64,000 nucleotides of DNA. Source: Carcharhinus amblyrhynchos (lineage: Eukaryota). Every line of letters begins with the position of its first letter. The first letter of the stretch is position 1. Where the stretch lies: assembly GCA_965287045.1 (NCBI GenBank), contig OZ336875.1, positions 85,560,001 to 85,624,000 of the forward strand. The letters are read 5' to 3'. Position numbers and translations under genes: made by a program. Of this stretch, positions 1 through 50,660 are shown piece after piece. The notes under the pieces were generated by a model that was not told the origin of the DNA, did not search any database, and saw only the letters and a list, made by a program, of their open reading frames with translations.

Positions 1-1490
1 CTTTAGTGAAGAGAATATGCCACCTGAACCTGGTCTATTCAATATATGTCTCCGGACCCACACAATATGGTTGACTCTTAACTGCCCTCTGAAATGACCC
101 AGCAAGTCACTGAGTTGTACCAAACAATAGAAAAATCAACAAGGAATGAAACCAAACAGACGACCAGGCATCAACCTTGGCATTGGAAATGACAGTGGCA
201 CACCCAGCCCTGTCAACTCTACAAAGTATTCCTTACTAACTAACATCTGGGGGCTTGTGCCAAAATTGGGAAATTTTGCCCCATTTACAAGTTAAGCAAC
301 AACCTGATATAGTCATGTAGAATCATACCTCACCGCCCAGAGATCATCATTATCCTTGGGTGTATCTTGTCTCATCCGCAGGATAGAAGGTAGAGATGGT
401 GGCTGTATACAGTCAGGAGGGAGTTCCCTTAGGAGTCTCAACATTGACTCAGGAGCCCATGAAGTCTCATGTCATCAGATAAAACATGGGAATAGGAATT
501 TTGTGTGTATTACCAACTACCATGCCCTATCAGCTGATTAATCAAGACTCCTCTATATTGAGTAACAACTGAAAGAAGCACTAAGGAATGGCAAGGGCAC
601 AAAATGGACTCTGGATGGGGGACTTCAGTGTCCATCACCGAATGGCTTAGTAGTGCTGAATTAACTAGGCCAAGTCCTGAACGACACAGCTGCTTGACTG
701 GGCCTGTGAAAGGTAATGAGGGGAACCAAGAGTGAAAAACTTACTTGACCTTATCTTCACCAATCTACCCATTACAGATGCAGCTGTCCATGACAGTAAT
801 GCTAAGTGTGACCACTGCACAGTCTTTGTGGAGACAAAGTCCAATCTTCACATTGAGCATATTCTCCACTGTGTTATGTGGCACTACCACCCTGCTGAAG
901 GGGCTCCATTTAGAACTGATCTAGCAATTCAAAACTGAATATGTGAGGTGCTGTGGGCTCTGCAGCAGAAAGGTAAACTGGATTCAATCACAAACGATAA
1001 CCTCTTGGCTCAGCATATCCCTCTATCATCATCATCATGCTGGGATATTAACTTTGGTTCAATGAATAGTGCAGGGGAGCATACTAGAACCAGCAGCAGG
1101 AAAGCCGAAAAATGAGGTAACAACAACACATGACTAACTTATATGCCAAATAGTGAAAAGGAGCATGTGATATACACGATTAAGCGTTCTAACAACCAAC
1201 AAATTAGATCATAGCTCTACAGTCTTGCCACATCTTACTGCAAATTGTGATGGACAATTAAAAAACTAACGGGAGAAGGAAACTCAACAAATATCACCAT
1301 CGTCAATGATGTGGGAGCACAGTGTCAGTGCACATGACGAGTCTGAAGCATCTGCAACCGTCTTCAGCCAGAAGTGCCGAGCGGATGATCCATCTCGGTC
1401 TTCACCAGCATTACAAATGCCAGTCTTCAGCCAAGTTGATTCACTCCACATGGTATCTATAAATAGCTGAAGGCTTGGATAATGCAATGG
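1..1490 (+). mobile_element. Decayed LINE of a CR1/L2-group (Crack-like) shark family, APE endonuclease region
   Basis: Broken motifs GDF.VHH (617-640), LLDLIFTNLP, (S)DHCTV, WHYH and EASATVFSQKCR, with many stops and frameshifts. Confidence 0.75.
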
Positions 1491-1712
1491 CAATAGACCT
1501 AAATACATTTGGAAATGTTTCATGATTTAAAATTGACTGATCGCTACTTGAGAAACAATACCAACTAGGGTTGCATAAAGGGGAATGTAATGAATGACAA
1601 CACAAGATATGGAATTGGATTCATTCATCATTGGATTACATTTAATTATGGCCTTGTCTATTCCAAATCTGTTTCCTTTCAGCAAGGACTTTCTTCAAAA
1701 GTTATTCCTTAC

Positions 1713-27399: not shown

Positions 27400-30117
27400 G
27401 CACCAATGACATAGGAAAGAGGTTCTGCATAGTCAGTATGAGGAGTTTGGTGCTAAATTAAGCAGAACCTCGAAGGTAATAATCTCTGGAGTATTGCCTG
27501 ATCCACATGTACATTTGCAGAAGAAAAATAAGATTGTGTCATGCATTCTTCATTCTAAAGGCATTATGGGATAAGTGAGCTCCAGTTCGCAGGGAACTGG
27601 CACCAATACTGGAGAAAATGGACTCAGCATCATTGGGACAGCCTACACCTGAACCATGCTGGGAAACGAGTTCTTCTGAATTGTATAACTAGGGAAACAG
27701 AGTAGGTTTTATACTGAAAAAAGGGATAAGGGAGGGGGCTGAGAGATCAAGCTTGGCTAGATGTTGCAAATTAATAGGTAGATTCAAAGCAGATCATAAC
27801 AGTAATATGGGAAATTAAAGTAACAGGAAGGAACAGATAAAATTTAAGAAAACACCTATAGTCAAGACTAGATGTTATAATGTTAACAAAAAGACAAAAC
27901 TAAAGGCTGTGTAACTGAGTGTGTGTAGCATTCATAAAGTAAATGAACTGATAGCACACAGTGAAGTAAATAAATGTGATCTAATAGCCATTAGGGAGAT
28001 GTCTTATGGGATGATTAGGATTAGGCCCTTTGTAGGGTAAGTTACATTCAAATAGTGGTCTGGATGAGGAATTCATAGAATGCTTTCAAGTTAGTTCCAG
28101 AATGTGCTGTTCTATGAAACTAACCAGAGATCAGGTTATATTAGACTTGGTATTGTGTAATGTGGCAGAATTAACGAATGATCTTAGAATGAAGGGACCT
28201 TTAGATGACCACGATATGATTGAATTTTAGATCCAGTTTGGAAGAACAGTGGGTCTAAGACTAGTACTTTAAACTTAAACAAGTGCAAATATATAGACTT
28301 AAGAGCTGACCTATCTGAAGTAAACTGGGATACTGGGGAAGTAATTCCAGACTTTTAAGGGGATATTTCAGAATACTTAGTTTAAGCATATTCCAACGAT
28401 GAAGAAAAATTCTAAATCGAGGGCCAGCATCTGAACTGAAGTAGTTAATGGCAGCATCAAACTTATGGATAAAACATGCAACTGCACAAAGATGAATAAC
28501 TGGTCAGAATATAAAGAACAGCAGAGAATGACTAAGGTTAATCAGAAGAAAGAAATCAGAACACAAGGAGAATCTCACTCGAAATGTATAAATGGATAGC
28601 AAGAGCTTCTCACCAGTATTTAAAAAGGTAAAAAGTAGACTGAGTGCTGGTCCTCTAGACATTGATAATGGGAGTTAGTAGCAGATCATAAGGAAATGAC
28701 AAATGAAATGAACAAATATTTTGCTTCTATCTTCACCATAGAAGATACAAAAAAAAAATTCCACTAACAGTTGTAAATCAGGTTGGAAGTGGTATTGAGC
28801 ATGCTGATAGAGCTGAAGACTTATGCATCTCCAGGTCCTGATAGATTTAGACCAGAGCGGCACAGTAGCTAGCACTGCTGCCTCTCAGCACCAGGGAGCT
28901 GGGTACAATTCTGGCCTTGGGACAGCATCTGTGCAGAGTTTGCTCATTCTCCCTGTGATTGCATGGGTTTCCTCTGGGTGCTCCGGTTTTTCTCTGACAG
29001 GCCATGTAAAATTGACTATTAGTGTCAGGAGATTAGCAGGGTAAATATGTGGGGCTACGGGAATAGATCCGGGGTGGAAATGCGTGATCAGTGCAGATTC
29101 GACAGGCCAAGTGGCCCCGTTCTGCATTTTAGGGGTTCTGTGGTTCTATGACTTTATCCTGGAGGTGGCTAATGAAATAGATGCGTTGATATTAATTTTC
29201 CAAAATTTGCTAGATTCTGCAAAGTAACACAGATCCATCGATTCAACAAGGGAGGCAGCAGACAGGAAATTACAGGCCAGTTAGCTTGGCATCTACTGGG
29301 GGGAAAAAGGTGTTAGAATTGATCATTAAGATGATAGCTGGGCACTTGAAGAAACTCAAGCTAATGGGAAGAGTCAGCATGGTTTTACACAAGGAAAATC
29401 AGGTTTAACCACGTAATTGGAGTGCTTTGAAGAAGTAACATGTATTGTGGATAAAAGGGAGCCTTTAGAAATATAAGATGCCACATCAAAGATTAATGTG
29501 GAAAACAAAAGCTCATGGTGTAGGAGGTAACATATTAGCATGGACAGAAGATTGGCTGACTGGCCAAGAGCAACAATGCATAAATGGATCTTTGAGTGGC
29601 AGGATGTGGTTGGTGGAGCCTTGCAAAGGTCTATGCTGGTGTCCAACGTTTCACAAATTATGTCAGAGGTAGGTTCTATACTCAGTAGTAAGAGTGTGGA
29701 ATGCCCTGCCTGCAACAATAGTGGACTCACCAATATGAAGGGCATTTAAATGGTCATTGGATAAACATATGGATGATATTGGAATAGTATAGGTTAGATA
29801 GGCTTTAGATTAGTTTCACAGGTTGGTGCAACATCAAGGGCTGAAGGGCCTATACTGTGTTGTAATGTTCTATGTACTGTATCAATGACTCACGAGGGAG
29901 TGATTACTGAATTTGCACAAGACACAAAGATAGGTAGTTAAATATGTTGAAGAAGAAACAAGGAGCTGCAGATAGATAGGCTGAATTTGTGAGCAAAAAT
30001 CTGGCTAGCAGTAACACTTAGCATGCAGGTACAGAGCAAGTAATTAAAAATGGTAAAGGAATGCTACCCTTTATTACCACAGGAATTAAACATAACAAGG
30101 ATGTAATGCTTTAATTA
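27400..30117 (+). mobile_element. Old CR1 LINE (ORF1 end, endonuclease, RT) with a nested SINE and a CR1 tail (29661-29880), truncated by a Penelope element
   Basis: LDLVLCN, DHDMIEF, NYRPVSL, SQHGFTQGKS and WTEDWL motifs, heavily decayed. Confidence 0.8.
28853..29150 (+). mobile_element. HE1-like V-SINE, near full length
   Basis: tRNA-like head (ggcacagtagctagc; ggtacaattc), V-domain (gagtttgctcattctccctgtgattgcatgggtttcctctgggtgctccggttt) and a CR1-type tail. Confidence 0.85.
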
Positions 30118-38999: not shown

Positions 39000-41700
39000 T
39001 CATTTCATTCATGGGATGGGGGCTTAGCTGGCTACGACAGCATTCATTGCCCATCTCTAATTGCCCTTGAGAAGGCAGTGGTGAGCCATCTTCTTGAACC
39101 ATAACAATCTATGTCGCGCAAGTACATCCACAGTGCCGTTAGAGTGTTCCAGGATTTTGATCCAGTGACAGTGAAGAAATGGTGATATTTTTTCATGTCA
39201 GGATGATGAGTGGCTTGGACAGAAACTCCCAGGTTACGGTATTTCCATGTGTCTGCTGCTTTTGTCCTTCTGGATGATAGTGGTCATGAGTTTGAAAGGT
39301 GGTGTCTCGGAAGCCTTTGTGAATTCCTGCAGGGGCAGGTGGATTGGCCATGTTAAGTTGCCCATCAGTGTCAGGGCAATTAGCAAGGTAAATGCATGGG
39401 TTTATGGGGATAGGGCCTGGGTGGAATTGTTGGTGGTCTAAGCTCCATGGGCTGAATGGCCTCTTTCTGCACTGTAGGGATTCTATGATTCTAGTGCATT
39501 TTGTAGATGATACACACTGCTATCGTGGTGCTTGTTTGGCAGATGGAATAAATGTTTGAGGTGTGGATGGGATCCCGATCAAGTGGGCTGTTTTATCTTA
39601 GATGGTGTTGAACTCGAGTGTTTTTGGAACTGTGTTCATCCAGGCAAGTAGAGTACTTCATCACACTCCTGACTTGTAGATGGAGGACAGACTTTGGATG
39701 TCAGAAGACGCATTATTTGCTGCAGAATTCCCTCTGACTTGTTCTTGTAACCACAGTATTTATATGGCTAGTCTAGTTCCGTTTCTGATCAATGTTAACC
39801 CCCAGAATATTGAGAGTGGAGGATTTGGTGATGTCATTTAATGTCAAGGGATGATGATTAAATTCTCACTTCTTGTAGATGGTTGTTGCCTGGCATCTGT
39901 GTGGCACAAATGTTATTTGCCACTTGTCAGCCCAATCCTAAATACTGCCCAGGTCTGGGACTGGTATTTGTACATGAACTGTTTCAGTATGAGTTTTTCA
40001 TGTACAGAGCATACCTGGGCAATTTTCCATATTATCTTCAATACTACTGCTGAATACCATCAAGACTGTAGCCTTTGCAGTCTCCAGTGCCTTCAGCCAT
40101 TTTTTGATATCACATGGGGTGAACTGAACAAAGAACAAAAAACAGCCCGGGAAACAGGCCCTTTGGCCCAACGAGCCCACGCCACCAATTTAACACCACC
40201 AGTCCCCCCCCCCTCCACCCATGGCCCTTATCTATTGTTTTATGGCCATCCACATTGAGGGAAACCAATTTAGGGACAATTTATTACTGCCAATCAGCCT
40301 AATAGCACATCTTTGGTGTGGGAGGAAACCGGAGCACCCAGAGAAAACCCACGCAAGCACAGGGAGAATGTGCAAACTCCCACAGACACTGGCCCAAATC
40401 CATGTGTCTGCACAGCAAACAGTGATAGTCACTGAGCTGTCGTCTTGCCCAGGATCTGGTCCAGTTTAAGCACACACTAACGACATGAAGCACGAGGCTA
40501 ATCTCGAACAACCAAGAGCAGCCCAAGTACGACACATCGCGTGTATGCCCCTCATTGGGCAACAAGGCGGACCAACTTAAAACCTGTGAATGAAAAGAGT
40601 AAAATCATCAACATACCATATCCATTTACCTTACCAGGGACGCCCCAATGCTAATAAACATTATTTAAAACAAATCTCCTATACCCACCCATCTCCAACC
40701 CACTCATGTGCCTGTCTAAGTTACTCTTAAACAACTCTAGCGCGCTTGCCTCCACCACCTTACTTGGCAGAGCATTCCATACCCCCACTACCCTCTGTGT
40801 GAAAAACCTCCCTCTAATATCTGTGTTATACCTCTCCCCCCTCACCTTAAGCCCATGGCCCCTCGTACTGTGTGTCTCTATCATAGAGTAAACAGAGGTA
40901 AGCTATTTCCTATCTATACCCTTCATAATCTTATATACCACTATTGGATCCCCCCTCAGTCGCCGTCTTTCAAGGGAAAAAAGCCCCAATTTGCTCAATC
41001 TTTCCTCATAACCCAATCCTTCCATATCAGGCAACATCCTGGTAAACCTCCTCTGCACTCTCTCCAGAGTCTCCACGTCCTTCCGGTAGTAAGGCGACCA
41101 AAACTGGACACAGTACTCCAAATGAGGCCTAACCGACATTCTATACAACTGCAACATTAGAGTCCAGCTCTTATATTCTATACTCCTTCCTATAAAAGGC
41201 TAACATACCATAGGCTTTCTTCACAACCTTCTCCACTTGAACTGCCACCTTCGAAGACTTGTGCACTTGCACCCCCAGGTCTTGCTGCGATTCTATACTC
41301 CTTATGGGCTTACCCTTTATCATATAACTCCGCCCTACATTATTCCGGCCAAAATGCACCACCTCACATTTATCCGGATTAAACTCCATTTGCCATGCAT
41401 CTGCCCAATATACCAGCCTATCAATATCCCATTGAACTGAATTGGCTGAAGACTGGCATCTGTCATGCTGGGAACTTCCAGAGGAGGCTGAAATGTATTA
41501 TACATTCGGTACTTCTGGCTGAAGATTGTAGCAATTGTCTCAATCTTCTCTTTTGCACTAATGTGCTGGGCTTCTCTGTTAGTGAGGTAGGGGATATTGT
41601 GGAGTCTCCTCCAGCGAGTTGTTTAATTTTCCACCACCATTCGCAGCTTAATGCAGCAGGACTGCAGACCTTGGATCTGATTCATCGATTTTGGGATCAC
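39000..41700 (-). mobile_element. CR1/L2-group LINE (same family as 1-1490) hosting an HE1 tail (39330-39492) and the 40129-41432 insertion
   Basis: Family 3' terminus at 39000-39100. The host sequence gatatcacatggggtgaactgaa|ttggctgaagactggc resumes at 41442. Confidence 0.8.
40129..41432 (-). mobile_element. 5'-truncated CR1 LINE with an extended 3' UTR ending in a V-SINE-derived segment; 9-bp TSD
   Basis: TSD tgaactgaa at 40120-40128 and 41433-41441. CR1 ORF2 pieces at 41171-41389, 40903-41157 and 40651-40884. V-domain at ~40310-40390. Tail ...gggcctgtttcccgggctgtttttttgttctttgttc. Confidence 0.88.
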
Positions 41701-41894: not shown

Positions 41895-44800
41895 TAGGTC
41901 GAATTTTATGATCTTATTGTGCCTATTTATTGGCTCCAAAATATTGTAAAGTCAGGAGTGAGCCAACTAGTGGGAATGACGCCCATTCCAGAAAGGAAAT
42001 TGGCACAATGAGAACTCCACCCAAAACGGGTGAAACATCACTTTGCATTTTTTTGCATTCATCACAATGTAATTAGCGAACTTCATTCCAAATCGTCCCA
42101 CTTCACCTTCCTTAACGATCTCTTTTGCTGCAGCTGTAACCAACAAGCAAAACACTTCATGTATAAAAGTCAGCTTCAGGCACTGGAGTAGTGAGGGTGA
42201 GAGGGGCAGGTCGGTCTCTGCTTTCAAAACGGCTCCATGCTGCAGAGGGGGTGCTGTTTTGTTGCACCATTGTTGTGTTTCCGGTTGGAGAGGGGGGCCC
42301 GCGAGTGTGTGGGGAGCTGCTGTTGCCTCTCAGCATGGACTAGGATCTGAACGCGTGACTCTGGATCCCAGCCAATAAGCAATGTTATTGCTGGGGAATG
42401 GGCTAGAAACTCTTTCAAGTAGCAGTGTTGGGGGGCTGCTGCTGTGTTGCCATTCTGAAGGACTGGGAATTGGGGAGTGTGTGTTGCTGGAAGGAGGGAG
42501 TTGATGGGATTGGAGTGTGAGAGAGCTGGGCTGAGGGCAAGCAGAGTTATCTAAATTTTCCATCTCTTTCCCCTCCCTCCCACCCCTCCTCACTGCTGCA
42601 TCTCTCCAAATTGATAATATGGCTTTTGCAGTGCAACCCATTGATCTTGCTGTTCTTTTGGTTATTGCTGGAACTGAGGAGTAGCAGCAAGAGAATGAAC
42701 TGTGGGCACAGGAAGCCCAGACCACACCACTCGCAGGAGAGGGAGGCGGCCGCCAGAGCAGGGCATAGTTGCCATTCGCTCCAAGGGGAGACCCCAGTAG
42801 TTCCACACACGAGTATCCTTTGAGTAACTATCGGACAATGCATGCCACTGATGGCTCTGAAAAGAGACAGTACGCCACTTGTGCCAGTTGGTACAGGAAT
42901 AGGCACCTTGGGGCACAAGTGGCACCCGCTCCTGGTAGCTGTGAAAGTGATGGCTGCCTTAAACTTTTATGCCACCAGACTGCCAGTGAAGACCTTTTTG
43001 GTATCTGAGTCACCCATGGACAAGTGGGTGAAGGTGGTCATGGATGCCCTGTATGCCCAGGCTGACCAATACATTAAATTTTACCCAGGCCCAGCAGGAA
43101 GCCCAGGCTGCAGGATTCACAGCCATTGCAGGGTTGCCAAATGTAAAAGGGGGCTATAGGCTGTACCCATGTCGCCCTCAACGCCCCCAACCCCTGTAAG
43201 ATTCATGAACAGAAAGGGCTTCCATTCCATCAATGCACAGTTGGTGTGTGACTATCAGCTGCACATCATATGTCTGTGCCACATGCATGATAGCTTTATG
43301 CTGAGGAGCTCAGATGTCCCACAGATTTTTGAGGAGCAGCAAGGGTGCAGGGATGGCTTGTGGGGGATATGAGGCACCTGCTTTGGATTTGACTGATGAC
43401 ACCAGTGTGGAAGCCTGAGACTGAGGCGAAGATCTGAAAGAATGACGTTGCCACCCACTTAATTGTGGAGTAGTGCATAGGGCTCCTCAAAATGCAGTTC
43501 AGGTGCCTGCACTGCTCTGGCGGGGCATTCCAGTATAGCCCTATGATATCGTCTCACATCGTGCAGCGCACAGCACACCACCACAATCTGGCACAGTAGC
43601 AGGGAGACTTTCTGGAGGAGGAAGAGGTGGGAGCCAAACACCTGGGCATCGCTTGGGGGGACAAAGGTTGGGGGGGGGGGGGGGGGGGGGGGGGGAGAAG
43701 GAGTGGGGGGGAGGAAGAGAAGGAGGGGGGGGAAAGAGAAGGAGGGGGGGGAAAGAGAAGGAGGGGGGGGAAAGAGAAGGAGGGGGGGGAAAGAGAAGGA
43801 GGGGGGGGAAAGAGAAGGAGGGGGGGGGAAAGAGAAGGAGGGGGGGGGAAAGAGAAGGAGGGGGGGGGAAAGAGAAGGAGGGGGGGGAAAGAGAAGGAGG
43901 GGGGGGAAAGAGAAGGAGGGGGGGGAAAGAGAAGGAGGGGGGGGAAAGAGAAGGAGGGGGGGGAAGGAGAAGGAGGGGGGGGAAGGAGAAGGAGGGGGGG
44001 GAAGGAGAAGGAGGGGGGGGAAAGAGAAGGAGGGGGGGGAAAGAGAAGGAGGGGGGGGAAAGAGAAGGAGGGGGGGGAAAGAGAAGGAGGGGGGGGAAAG
44101 AGAAGGAGGGGGGGGAAAGAGAAGGAGGGGGGGGAAAGAGAAGGAGGGGGGGGAAAGAGAAGGAGGGGGGGGAAAGAGAAGGAGGGGGGGGAAAGAGAAG
44201 GAGGGGGGGGAAAGAGAAGGAGGGGGGGGGAAAGAGAAGGAGGGGGGGGGAAAGAGAAGGAGGGGGGGGAAAGAGAAGGAGGGGGGGGGAAAGAGAAGGA
44301 GGGGGGGGGAAAGAGAAGGAGGGGGGGGAAAGAGAAGGAGGGGGGGGGAAAGAGAAGGAGGAGGGGGGGGAAAGAGAAGGAGGAGGGGGGGGAAAGAGAA
44401 GGAGGGGGGGGAAAGAGAAGGAGGGGGGGGGAAAGAGAAGGAGGAGGGGGGGGAAAGAGAAGGAGGGGGGGGAAAGAGAAGGAGGGGGGGGAAAGAGAAG
44501 GAGGAGGGGGGGGAAAGAGAAGGAGGGGGGGGAGAAGAGAAGGAGGGGGGGGAGAAGAGAAGGAGGGGGGGGAGAAGAGAAGGGGGGGGGGGAGAAGAGA
44601 AGGAGGGGGGGAGAAAGAGAAGGAGGGGGGGGAAAGAGAAGGAGGGGGGGGAAAGAGAAGGAGGGGGGGGAAAAGAGAAGGCGGGGGGGGAAGAGAAGGA
44701 GGGGGGGGGGAGGCAAGAGGAGGATAGCAGCAACAACCAAACATGATCCAGGCACTAGAGGCAGCAAGGATCAGGCATTCGAGGGCAGCCCTGATCACCA

Positions 44801-45930
44801 CGCATTTTAGAAATTAAGAGTGTTGCTGCACATGGGTTCAGATCCAACCCACCATGACCCCGTGCACCCCTTAAATCTCCTGCAACATTGTAACACCAGA
44901 ATGTGGGCCTGGGTATGCTGTGTTAGCAAGTTTCTGTGACAGGTAAGGCGATGACGACAACTCGCTATGCATCTTCATGTTGATGCCCTGGTACAAACTC
45001 GTCTGACCCTTACCTGAACTCTGCATGCACGCTCTAAACATCCATGCAGATCTTCAGGCCGAATTTGAGGGCGGGTGGGTCTCTCCCTGGCTCTGGAGAT
45101 GCCACAGCAGATGTTGTCAGTGGCTGCCACTGCACACCACCAGCTGTCGCCAGTGAATGATTTGAGGGCCTTGATTTTCACAATAGCTATACACTAAGGG
45201 CCCTCCTCCACTGACATCAACTTGCAGGGTTCCTCTGACAAAAGTCAGGGTAAATACATTCCCATGGGAGGCTTATCAGAGACATTAGCTGCAACTGTGG
45301 GATACAGTAACATTTGATGGTGCCAATAAGAGTGCCATCAAATTAAGTGCTAACATATAAAAACAAGCAAAAGTGAGGCTTTTAAGTGCCTAAATATTCT
45401 AGCTGGAGTACTCCTTCAACCATGCCATCTTCGTGCAGCTACACCCTCTTAACTTTACGTGGCCAACCATTGTGTCTCAGTGTCTCTTCAGGATGTACAT
45501 CGGAGGTGGGAGACACAAGGTTAAGTGCAAGGGAGGACCATGAATCTAGGCTGCACGCAACTTACTTCAGGTATCTCCAACAAATGGAAGATTGGCAAGT
45601 GCTCACTTCAGTGCTCCAGCCGGACCTGGCTGTTGTCAATTGTGCGGATCACCTCAACTCCTGCAAGCTCCAGTGTCCAGTCCTCAAAGGGTGAGGGGAC
45701 CGGATCTTAGGCACACCACCCACTGTCTTTGTCCTCTCCGGTGGTTATGGGCATTCTTTTCCCATGGGTACAAATGGAGCCACATAAAATCTGATGACAA
45801 GAATCCTGGAAGTAAGTGTCAGGGAGTGGCTCTCAGAGGGCAAGGACTGACAGACTCTTGGGGTTCAAGGAAGGTGCTGCGGGTCACAGGTCATTTAGGG
45901 AAAGATGCTAGATCAGGTTGAACACCCTTG
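41895..45930 (+). mobile_element. Decayed PIF/Harbinger DNA transposon (transposase about 42620-44810)
   Basis: VKVMAALNFYAT, NRKGFHSINAQLVCD, HDSFML, WLVGD, IGLLKMQFRCL and C-terminal ...HAF* at 44810. Left end ggtcgaattttatg. Right boundary uncertain. Confidence 0.85.
43670..44713 (+). repeat. Purine-only minisatellite: ~50 units of AAAGAGAAGGA(G)8-9 preceded by a G26 run
   Basis: Directly visible. Only two pyrimidines (T43704, C44682) in 1044 bp. Confidence 0.97.
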
Positions 45931-49871: not shown

Positions 49872-50660
49872 ACTGAATCTCTACGGTGCAGAAAGAGGCC
49901 ATTCAGCACATCAAGTCTGCACTGTCTCGCCAAAAGAGCATCCCACCCGGGCCCTCCCCTCTGCTGTATCCCCATAACTCGTGCATTTGCCATAGCCAAT
50001 CCCCCTAGCCTACACATCTTTGGATACTAAGGGACAATTTAGATTATTCAATCCACCTAACCTGCACATCTTTGACAGCCATAAGAAATCATTATTTCTG
50101 GTGGTATCACAGTTTGATATGGCTCCAAGACTGCAAAAAAAACCACAAAGGATTGTGAATGAAGCCCAGTCCATCACACAAACCAGCCTCCAATCCACTG
50201 ACACAGTCTACACATCCCATTGCCTCCGAAAAGCAGCCAGCATAATCAAGGACTCCATGCACACTGGACATATTCTCTTGAACCTCCTTTCGTTGGGAAA
50301 AAGACAAAAATCCAAAGACACGTACCAACTAACTCATGAACAACTTCTTCCCTGCTACCAATTTTTGGAAGGACCTACCTCATATTAAGTTGATCTTTCT
50401 CTACACCCTATGGTTGTAACACTACATTCTGCGCTCTATCCTTTCCTTCTGTGTGATGGTATGTTTTCTGTATAGTGTGCAAAAACAATACTAATACATG
50501 TGACAATAATAAATCAAACATCTTTGCACCTTGGGAAGAAACTACAACGCCCAAGGAAACCCACGTAGGCGCAGGGAGAATGTGCAAACTCCACACAAGC
50601 CCAAAAATCAAACCCAGATCTTTGGCGCTGAGAGCAGCAGCGCTAGTCACTGTGCCTCCC
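49872..50660 (-). mobile_element. HE1-like V-SINE interrupted by a Rex1 fragment
   Basis: Head at 50600-50660 (ggcacagtgactagc), V-domain at 50530-50600 and tail at 49872-50070. Confidence 0.82.
50075..50517 (+). mobile_element. Rex1/Babar LINE 3' end with 9-bp TSD
   Basis: QRIVNEAQSIT...YTSHCLRKAASIIKDSMHTGHILLNLLSLGKR (Rex1-type C-terminus), tail aataaatcaa, TSD acatctttg at 50066-50074 and 50518-50526. Confidence 0.82.

Follow-up and report, generated by a model that had tools for sequence, protein, structure and literature searches.

This study concerns a stretch of 64,000 nucleotides (nt) of Carcharhinus amblyrhynchos DNA (assembly GCA_965287045.1, contig OZ336875.1, positions 85,560,001 to 85,624,000 of the forward strand), hereafter the window, and within it a CR1 element, a long interspersed nuclear element (LINE) that carries part of a V-domain short interspersed nuclear element (V-SINE) in its 3′ untranslated region (UTR). 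The element belongs to an autonomous CR1 clade that shares this architecture, gained the insert once, and has retained it through successive subfamilies to a young and intact one, the V domain changing slowly throughout; the clade is real, abundant, and probably still mobile. We consider it likely that its ancestor gained an insert of ∼630 nt, containing a tail-less and probably promoter-dead V-SINE, between its stop codon and the tail recognized by its own reverse transcriptase (RT), and that the V domain is kept as a cis-acting RNA element aiding retrotransposition. An earlier interpretation of the letters alone (the sequence-only reading) had proposed that a CR1 lineage uses a promoter-dead SINE as both its 3′ UTR and its RT-recognition tail. 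Coordinates below are window positions, the element lies on the minus strand, and the genome searched comprised 2.92 Gb.

A CR1 clade with a V-SINE module in its 3′ UTR

The window element is bracketed by a 9-bp target-site duplication (TSD), tgaactgaa, and the LINE that it interrupts is continuous without it, as a second copy of this host (window 1380-1500, minus strand) aligns over the insertion site with a single tgaactgaa. The sequence-only reading had described both features, and it was equally correct about the minus-strand order, which runs from the end of open reading frame 2 (ORF2) through a unique UTR, a transfer RNA (tRNA)-type head lacking a B box, and a V domain to the tail, with no CR1 tail between the stop codon and the SINE part of this copy. 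Its description of ORF2 as well preserved with a stop at 40651 stands only insofar as the end of ORF2 is present: the frame is split over three frames and contains a 31-nt inversion, and the apparent stop is an effect of a 1-nt insertion in the window copy, the family stop being the TAA at 40667-40665. The extra nucleotide, at 40672, is missing too from contigs of public sequencing runs. Taken alone, the three ORF2 fragments of the window matched no Pfam family, and the window produced no Rfam match at gathering scores.

A query with the UTR returned 3,404 candidates genome-wide, and all 29 of the other loci fetched were collinear with the window copy through UTR, head, V domain, and tail (88-93% identity), 28 of them reaching the stop or ORF2. 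Because these 29 were the top-ranked matches, additional loci were drawn according to their position. Exact head 21-mers gave 10,913 and 1,997 matches genome-wide and none for reversed controls, which places the size of the clade at 12,910 copies at least; 110 such loci were sampled, and 88 independent copies were left once duplicates had been removed. ORF2 is reached by 69 of the 88, the LINE tail motif is present in 79, and 19 are truncated at scattered points, those closest to the head lying at −4, −9, and −14. An apparent peak of truncations at the head (8 of 30 loci) was reduced to three events without duplicates and was gone in the 88 copies. The element thus represents a stable family rather than a one-off event, as had been suggested. 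A TSD private to the SINE part, named earlier as evidence against joint insertion, was found in none of the 28 testable copies (0/28). The further expectation of many copies with one order of segments, each having its own TSD, held for the order, but not for the TSDs: duplications of at least 8 bp were present in only 2 of 17 copies, compared with 15 of 272 mismatched-flank controls, and no enrichment over such controls was found in subfamily A. A permissive search made with no control yielded junction words of 5-8 nt in 13 of 14 subfamily D copies.

The clade contains at least eight subfamily clusters. Copies of subfamily D, numbering at least 1,997 in the genome, are ∼99% identical pairwise (L202, L205, L206, L161-L180). 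The full-length form measures 4,632 nt (4.6 kb), one 5′ end being common to 3 of 14 extended D loci, and has an open ORF1 of 302 amino acids and an open ORF2 of 927 amino acids with apurinic/apyrimidinic endonuclease (APE) and RT domains. ORF2 of L205 matches PF03372 (E = 1.6e-13) and PF00078 (E = 1.3e-36), and ORF1 resembles Lipase_GDSL_2 (E = 5.6e-6) at 27.4 bits, under the Pfam cut-off of 32.9. An A copy, L035, keeps 821 open ORF2 codons. Subfamily D is probably still active or was so recently. Members of the clade end in a 3′ stem-loop and a short tandem repeat with no poly-A, and 5′ truncation is frequent; the stem-loop is a prediction that does not rise above shuffles (z = −0.86). The stretch from ORF2 to the head is represented in 20 public sequencing runs from 12 studies and seven organisms, none of these runs being listed as RNA; contigs of two putative RNA runs cover, piecemeal, the ORF end, UTR, folded block, and head, no single contig reaching across all of them.

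The head of subfamily B aligns end to end with the head of free V-SINEs (54/79), and none of 1,000 shuffles scores as well. The B box is degenerate in subfamily B and lost in A, C, and D by a common 18-nt deletion, and the A box is altered, such that the Pol III (RNA polymerase III) promoter of the captured SINE part looks dead. Homology to SINEs extends through the V domain and a further ∼39 nt to a point near 40270, which lies ∼85 nt short of the tail; neither free V-SINE family matches the spacer after V. We take this segment to be the V domain on the basis of its position and its length of ∼80 bp, in a comparison that covered free copies of this genome; the names HE1-type and L2-type are likewise working labels. 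In a 464-kb sample composed of 40 evenly placed 10-kb regions and the window, V copies occur at a density of ∼170 per Mb, and free V-SINEs contribute 79 of the 82 V hits. Two free V-SINE families are abundant (L041-L080; window 28917-28989 and 50532-50597), with a common head and V module followed by different bodies and tails.

Slow change of the V domain

Between subfamily consensuses, the V domain differs at 3/82 (A-B), 4/82 (A-D), and 5/82 (B-D) positions, or 4-6%, compared with 20/61, 21/70, and 25/66 fourfold ORF2 sites, or 30-38% (p = 2e-6 to 4e-5); the fourfold counts rest on the A, B, and D consensuses, consensus C being excluded. Relative to fourfold sites, change in V is slower by a factor of 6-9, and it is about equal to that in the tail, which differs at 2-6 of 56 positions. 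The block differs at 15-21%, and the first UTR segment and the spacer after V are rewritten between subfamilies with large insertions and deletions. When eight clusters were compared with B, V differed by 1-9% and fourfold sites by 8-50%, and the slow-V pattern was evident in seven of them, the eighth being very close to B. Within the family, where the sequence-only reading had looked for a contrast among ORF, head, and V, divergence is flat at 2-5% in every region (in a sample biased by hit ranking), as is expected for dead copies; the signal lies between subfamilies.

That reading had also held that the head decayed while V was kept. V is constrained, but the head is not simply decaying: it changed early, and since then its first 43 nt have been almost frozen, with 0-6 differences from B and a hairpin that is kept and includes one compensated pair in subfamily D. 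When the window segment is folded in isolation, its best structure is one other than this hairpin. Folding of block and head together gives z = −3.27 (−2.6, −3.5, −1.2, and −2.6 for subfamilies A to D).

A LINE-type site within V is present in 35 of 60 LINE-borne copies and in 0 of 101 free ones, and a SINE-type site is found in 35 of 101 free copies and in only one of 60 LINE-borne ones; free SINEs are thus not overwriting the V domain of the LINE. LINE-specific variants are retained from B to D and, together with the slow change of V relative to fourfold sites, make it likely that the domain is under selection in this CR1 clade. The same data bear on the proposal that V is merely an exchange hot spot among LINE subfamilies and the numerous free V-SINEs, kept uniform by recombination or gene conversion with no benefit to LINE RNA, which we regard as unlikely. 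The predominance of free SINEs among V hits is in its favor, as are three recombinant loci. L010 has A-type ORF2, UTR, and head, and turns to C-type sequence after V. L352 (G000:C7:119463521-119466554) and L361 (G000:C31:22982661-22985694) are single-copy chimeras of a SINE head and a LINE tail; their heads are of the free-SINE type with intact A and B boxes (8/74 and 9/73 differences from the HE1-type head), their V, spacer, and tail are A-type and C-type, respectively (6/168 and 5/153 differences), and in both the switch from head to LINE falls at the start of V. Against it, the LINE-specific V variants kept from B to D are absent from the 101 free copies, and change is slower than at fourfold sites also in parts for which free SINEs offer no donor, namely the first 43 nt of the head, the block, and the tail. 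Of the two chimeras, L352 lies in a free SINE of antisense orientation, which it interrupts, and the head of L361 sits within the V domain of a LINE copy.

A branch-point-like word followed by a pyrimidine tract and CAG (window 40610-40584, minus strand) is kept in all LINE subfamily clusters despite the rewritten UTR upstream of it. No copies spliced at this acceptor-like motif were found among the 110 loci, nor is any donor conserved across subfamilies; in the 23 of 110 loci without the motif, its absence is due to truncation, point change, or deletion. L249, L270, and L274, all three truncated, start within ∼8 nt after it.

Single gain, the tail, and competing accounts

In a catalogue of 133 distinct ORF2 ends, other CR1 families have 3′ UTRs of only ∼60-100 nt, as compared to 500-700 nt in the V-bearing clade. 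A sister family designated S (20 loci) is SINE-less and has the same tail directly after its stop codon. S and B align in two blocks, with 85.6% identity over 1,049 nt of ORF2, 92.9% over the last 70 nt, and nothing between, so that B can be read as S plus an insert of ∼630 nt. Tail identity is 54/59 between B and S and 49/58 between A and S, as opposed to 41/58 for either LINE subfamily against the free HE1-type SINE (p = 0.005 for B). The LINE-type tail was found in 0 of 101 free V copies, among which 38 have an HE1-type tail, 30 an L2-type tail, and 33 none, the loop motif alone occurring in one. Because the tail is the same as that following the stop in S and is not carried by free V-SINEs, the SINE within the insert was apparently tail-less. 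The sequence-only reading was right in that the promoter looks dead, but the RT-recognition tail that it assigned to the SINE matches a SINE-less family and lies beyond the end of SINE homology.

Trees were built from elements of this genome only. Of 72 candidates for the ORF2 tree, 47 rows were selected and 15 outgroup rows, mostly of one abundant family, were dropped; in the resulting tree of 32 rows, S is sister to A+B (100/99). The consensus tree has the form (outgroups,(S,(B,(C,(A,D))))), with support of 100/99 for the insert clade. Since the insert is absent from S and from the 12 outgroup rows, a single gain is the simplest reading. This distribution, together with the tRNA-type head inside the insert, also bears out the earlier claim that the SINE moved into the LINE.

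An alternative that we find improbable, and that extends the sequence-only reading, is that the 3′ end of the LINE was replaced by a whole V-SINE including its tail; the donor would be a V-SINE family, now extinct, whose tail had itself been taken previously from an S-type CR1. The lack of a CR1 tail between stop and head in the window copy is consistent with such a replacement, as is the weak resemblance of the 30 nt after the stop of B to the start of the S tail, as though an old tail had decayed there (6/2000 shuffles, post hoc). The head, moreover, differs from free SINEs at 25/79 sites, compared with 7/82 for V (p = 3e-4), which is more than the short stem branch of B predicts (B-S fourfold differences, 14/74). 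The replacement is opposed by the absence of the tail from free V-SINEs and by the ∼300 nt of non-SINE sequence ahead of the head in B. There is also no pile-up of 5′ ends at the start of the head, either in the 88 copies or in 25 B-type loci, of which 23 run to the tail with scattered 5′ ends, one of them at −2. A genome-wide pattern of an intact B box and a LINE-type V start, searched with no matched control, revealed no living donor family: of its 17 matches, 15 are without the LINE block, spacer, and tail, and two are the one-off chimeras. Even if the replacement did occur, the tail would still be of this LINE clade's type.

That V is a neutral passenger, captured by chance and carried along by successful masters, is very improbable; SINE-less CR1s thrive, and the neighbors of V within the insert erode freely, but V itself has evolved at about the rate of the tail while those neighbors were deleted or rewritten. 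It is scarcely credible that the V domain was born in a CR1 3′ UTR and then passed to SINEs, as LINE-derived SINE bodies known for RTE and Vingi might suggest (PMC5786205), since a tRNA-type head forms part of the insert, which occurs only in a single clade that is young and nested in the tree, and V-SINEs are spread across metazoans (PMC5804259).

In the account that we favor, that of a captured, tail-less SINE whose V domain serves the LINE RNA, priming by ORF2p would still take place at the stem-loop tail native to the LINE, as has been demonstrated for zebrafish LINEs, whose ORF2p recognizes the cognate tail (PMC4176376). Without its A and B boxes, the 3′ UTR would be kept from being transcribed as a rival Pol III SINE. 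One RNA module acting in cis would be made up of V, the folded block, and the head hairpin; it might stabilize the LINE RNA or deliver it to ORF2p, a benefit that V would likewise bring to SINE RNAs. More tentatively, the LINE may have domesticated a SINE domain in a broader sense, with V a cis-acting enhancer of retrotransposition in both LINE and SINE RNA and, in the LINE, also a homology bridge by which free SINE heads obtain a new LINE tail; the bridging role is suggested by the two chimeras, L352 and L361. Both match the tail exchange through the conserved domain that is hypothesis (i) of PMC5804259, and both are single copies.

Several points weigh against the favored account. SINE-less CR1 families, including S and one that is very abundant, have amplified well with no such module, and V is thus not required for amplification. 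The death of the promoter is read from sequence. Covariation in the block is thin (2 double, 9 single, 8 broken, and 38 invariant pairs in four consensus rows), and the fold of the subfamily C block reaches a z of only −1.21. Recombination at or near V, as in L010, L352, and L361, could help to keep the domain uniform. The tail-like remnant after the stop of B leaves room for a history in which the old tail decayed and the insert may have brought along a second copy of S type, the one now present, and the divergence of the head, given the short B stem, for a donor that may have been another, now rare, V-SINE family.

The window copy and its relation to known systems

The features of the window copy are listed in the table. 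The 31-nt inversion is also found in L023; short inverted words flank it, and its two carriers show no excess of common mutations, so it is probably a recurrent event.

Table. Parts of the CR1 insertion and its target-site duplication, in window positions
Feature	Position	Strand	Remarks
TSD copy at the 3′ end of the element	40120..40128	+	tgaactgaa
Native CR1 tail of the LINE, stem-loop and (TTCTTTG)n	40129..40186	-	common to SINE-less sister family S
CR1 subfamily A copy, 5′-truncated	40129..41432	-	one-unit insertion in an older host LINE
Variable spacer	40187..40269	-	no significant similarity to the bodies of free SINEs
3′ extension of the V module	40270..40308	-	end of SINE homology; also the point where the two free V-SINE families diverge
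V domain core	40309..40388	-	92-93% identity to free V-SINEs
Remodelled tRNA-derived V-SINE head	40389..40450	-	A box altered, B box deleted, hairpin kept
Conserved folded block, ∼133 nt	40451..40583	-	differs at 15-21% between subfamilies
Variable first part of the 3′ UTR	40584..40664	-	branch-point-like word, pyrimidine tract, and CAG at its end (∼40610-40584)
3′ part of ORF2 (RT end and C-terminal region), broken	40665..41431	-	family stop TAA at 40667-40665; intact homologues L035, L205
31-nt inversion within ORF2 relative to the family	40883..40913	-	2/15 A-type copies
TSD copy at the 5′ end of the element	41433..41441	+	tgaactgaa

The older host LINE also contains a headless free HE1-type V-SINE, consisting of body and tail (window ∼39330-39490, plus strand), ∼640 nt from the element. 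Elsewhere in the window, a purine-rich simple tandem repeat of ∼1.2 kb (43540-44810) gives rise to long open frames of low complexity. Repeated copies at G000:C1 ∼0.29-5.52 Mb (L211/L217/L238/L246, L212/L218/L239, L214/L219, and L256-L263) and on C33 (L149-L151) either have the same flanks or are regularly spaced, which suggests that they arose by segmental or tandem duplication.

It is an open question why the central domains of SINEs (CORE, V, Deu, and others) have remained conserved for hundreds of millions of years. In the present clade, V sits in an autonomous LINE with neither promoter nor tail of its own, and its rate of change is nevertheless as low as that of the RT-recognition tail, a pattern that speaks for a benefit to the RNA being retrotransposed and not to the host; intact subfamily D and the SINE-less S offer a natural pair with and without the module. 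The V domain has a length of ∼80 bp (PMC4824008), and a 2016 paper states that no such conserved domain was known in LINEs; if our account is true, a SINE conserved domain is under selection inside a LINE, the case described there as unknown. No CR1 carrying a V domain within the 3′ UTR was described in the titles, opening lines of abstracts, and passages that the literature search covered; Repbase and Dfam lay outside this search, and a library entry may exist.

Ogiwara reportedly found in 1999 that the tail of the LINE HER1 is almost identical to that of the SINE HE1. The tail of our clade is not near-identical to that of the free family labelled HE1-type, at 41/58 in a comparison limited to elements of this genome, and it is distinct from the tail of either free V-SINE family present. 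The HE1 V-SINE and HER1 CR1-type LINE pair of sharks and rays (PMC3747384) otherwise offers the same components, namely a tRNA head, a V domain, a CR1-type tail, and a CR1 LINE ending in a stem-loop and microsatellite. In that pair, however, SINE and LINE have only the tail in common, whereas in the LINE described here a SINE head and a V domain lie upstream of the native LINE tail.

Capture of a promoter-less V-SINE and its spread by another mobile element also characterize MER6/MER6A, a Mariner MITE (miniature inverted-repeat transposable element) holding a headless Ac1-like V-SINE (PMC6887750), but MER6 is an inactive non-autonomous DNA transposon, whereas the present clade is an autonomous, RNA-mobile retroelement with intact young copies in which constraint on V has been measured. 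SINE-related sequence within LINEs is likewise found in Ingi-3_AC, whose 5′ UTR has a Ceph/RTE-like piece possibly derived from LINE-SINE recombination, and RTE-1_DAn, with its tRNA-like sequence, is alike in kind (PMC5786205). Both are passing remarks made with no constraint test, and neither concerns a V domain kept in the 3′ UTR through a series of subfamilies. Finally, our clade resembles canonical vertebrate CR1s, which are very abundant in elasmobranchs, in its putatively esterase-type ORF1, its ORF2 with APE and RT, and its lack of poly-A (PMC13343379), and differs from the other CR1 families sampled here in its long 3′ UTR with a SINE module.
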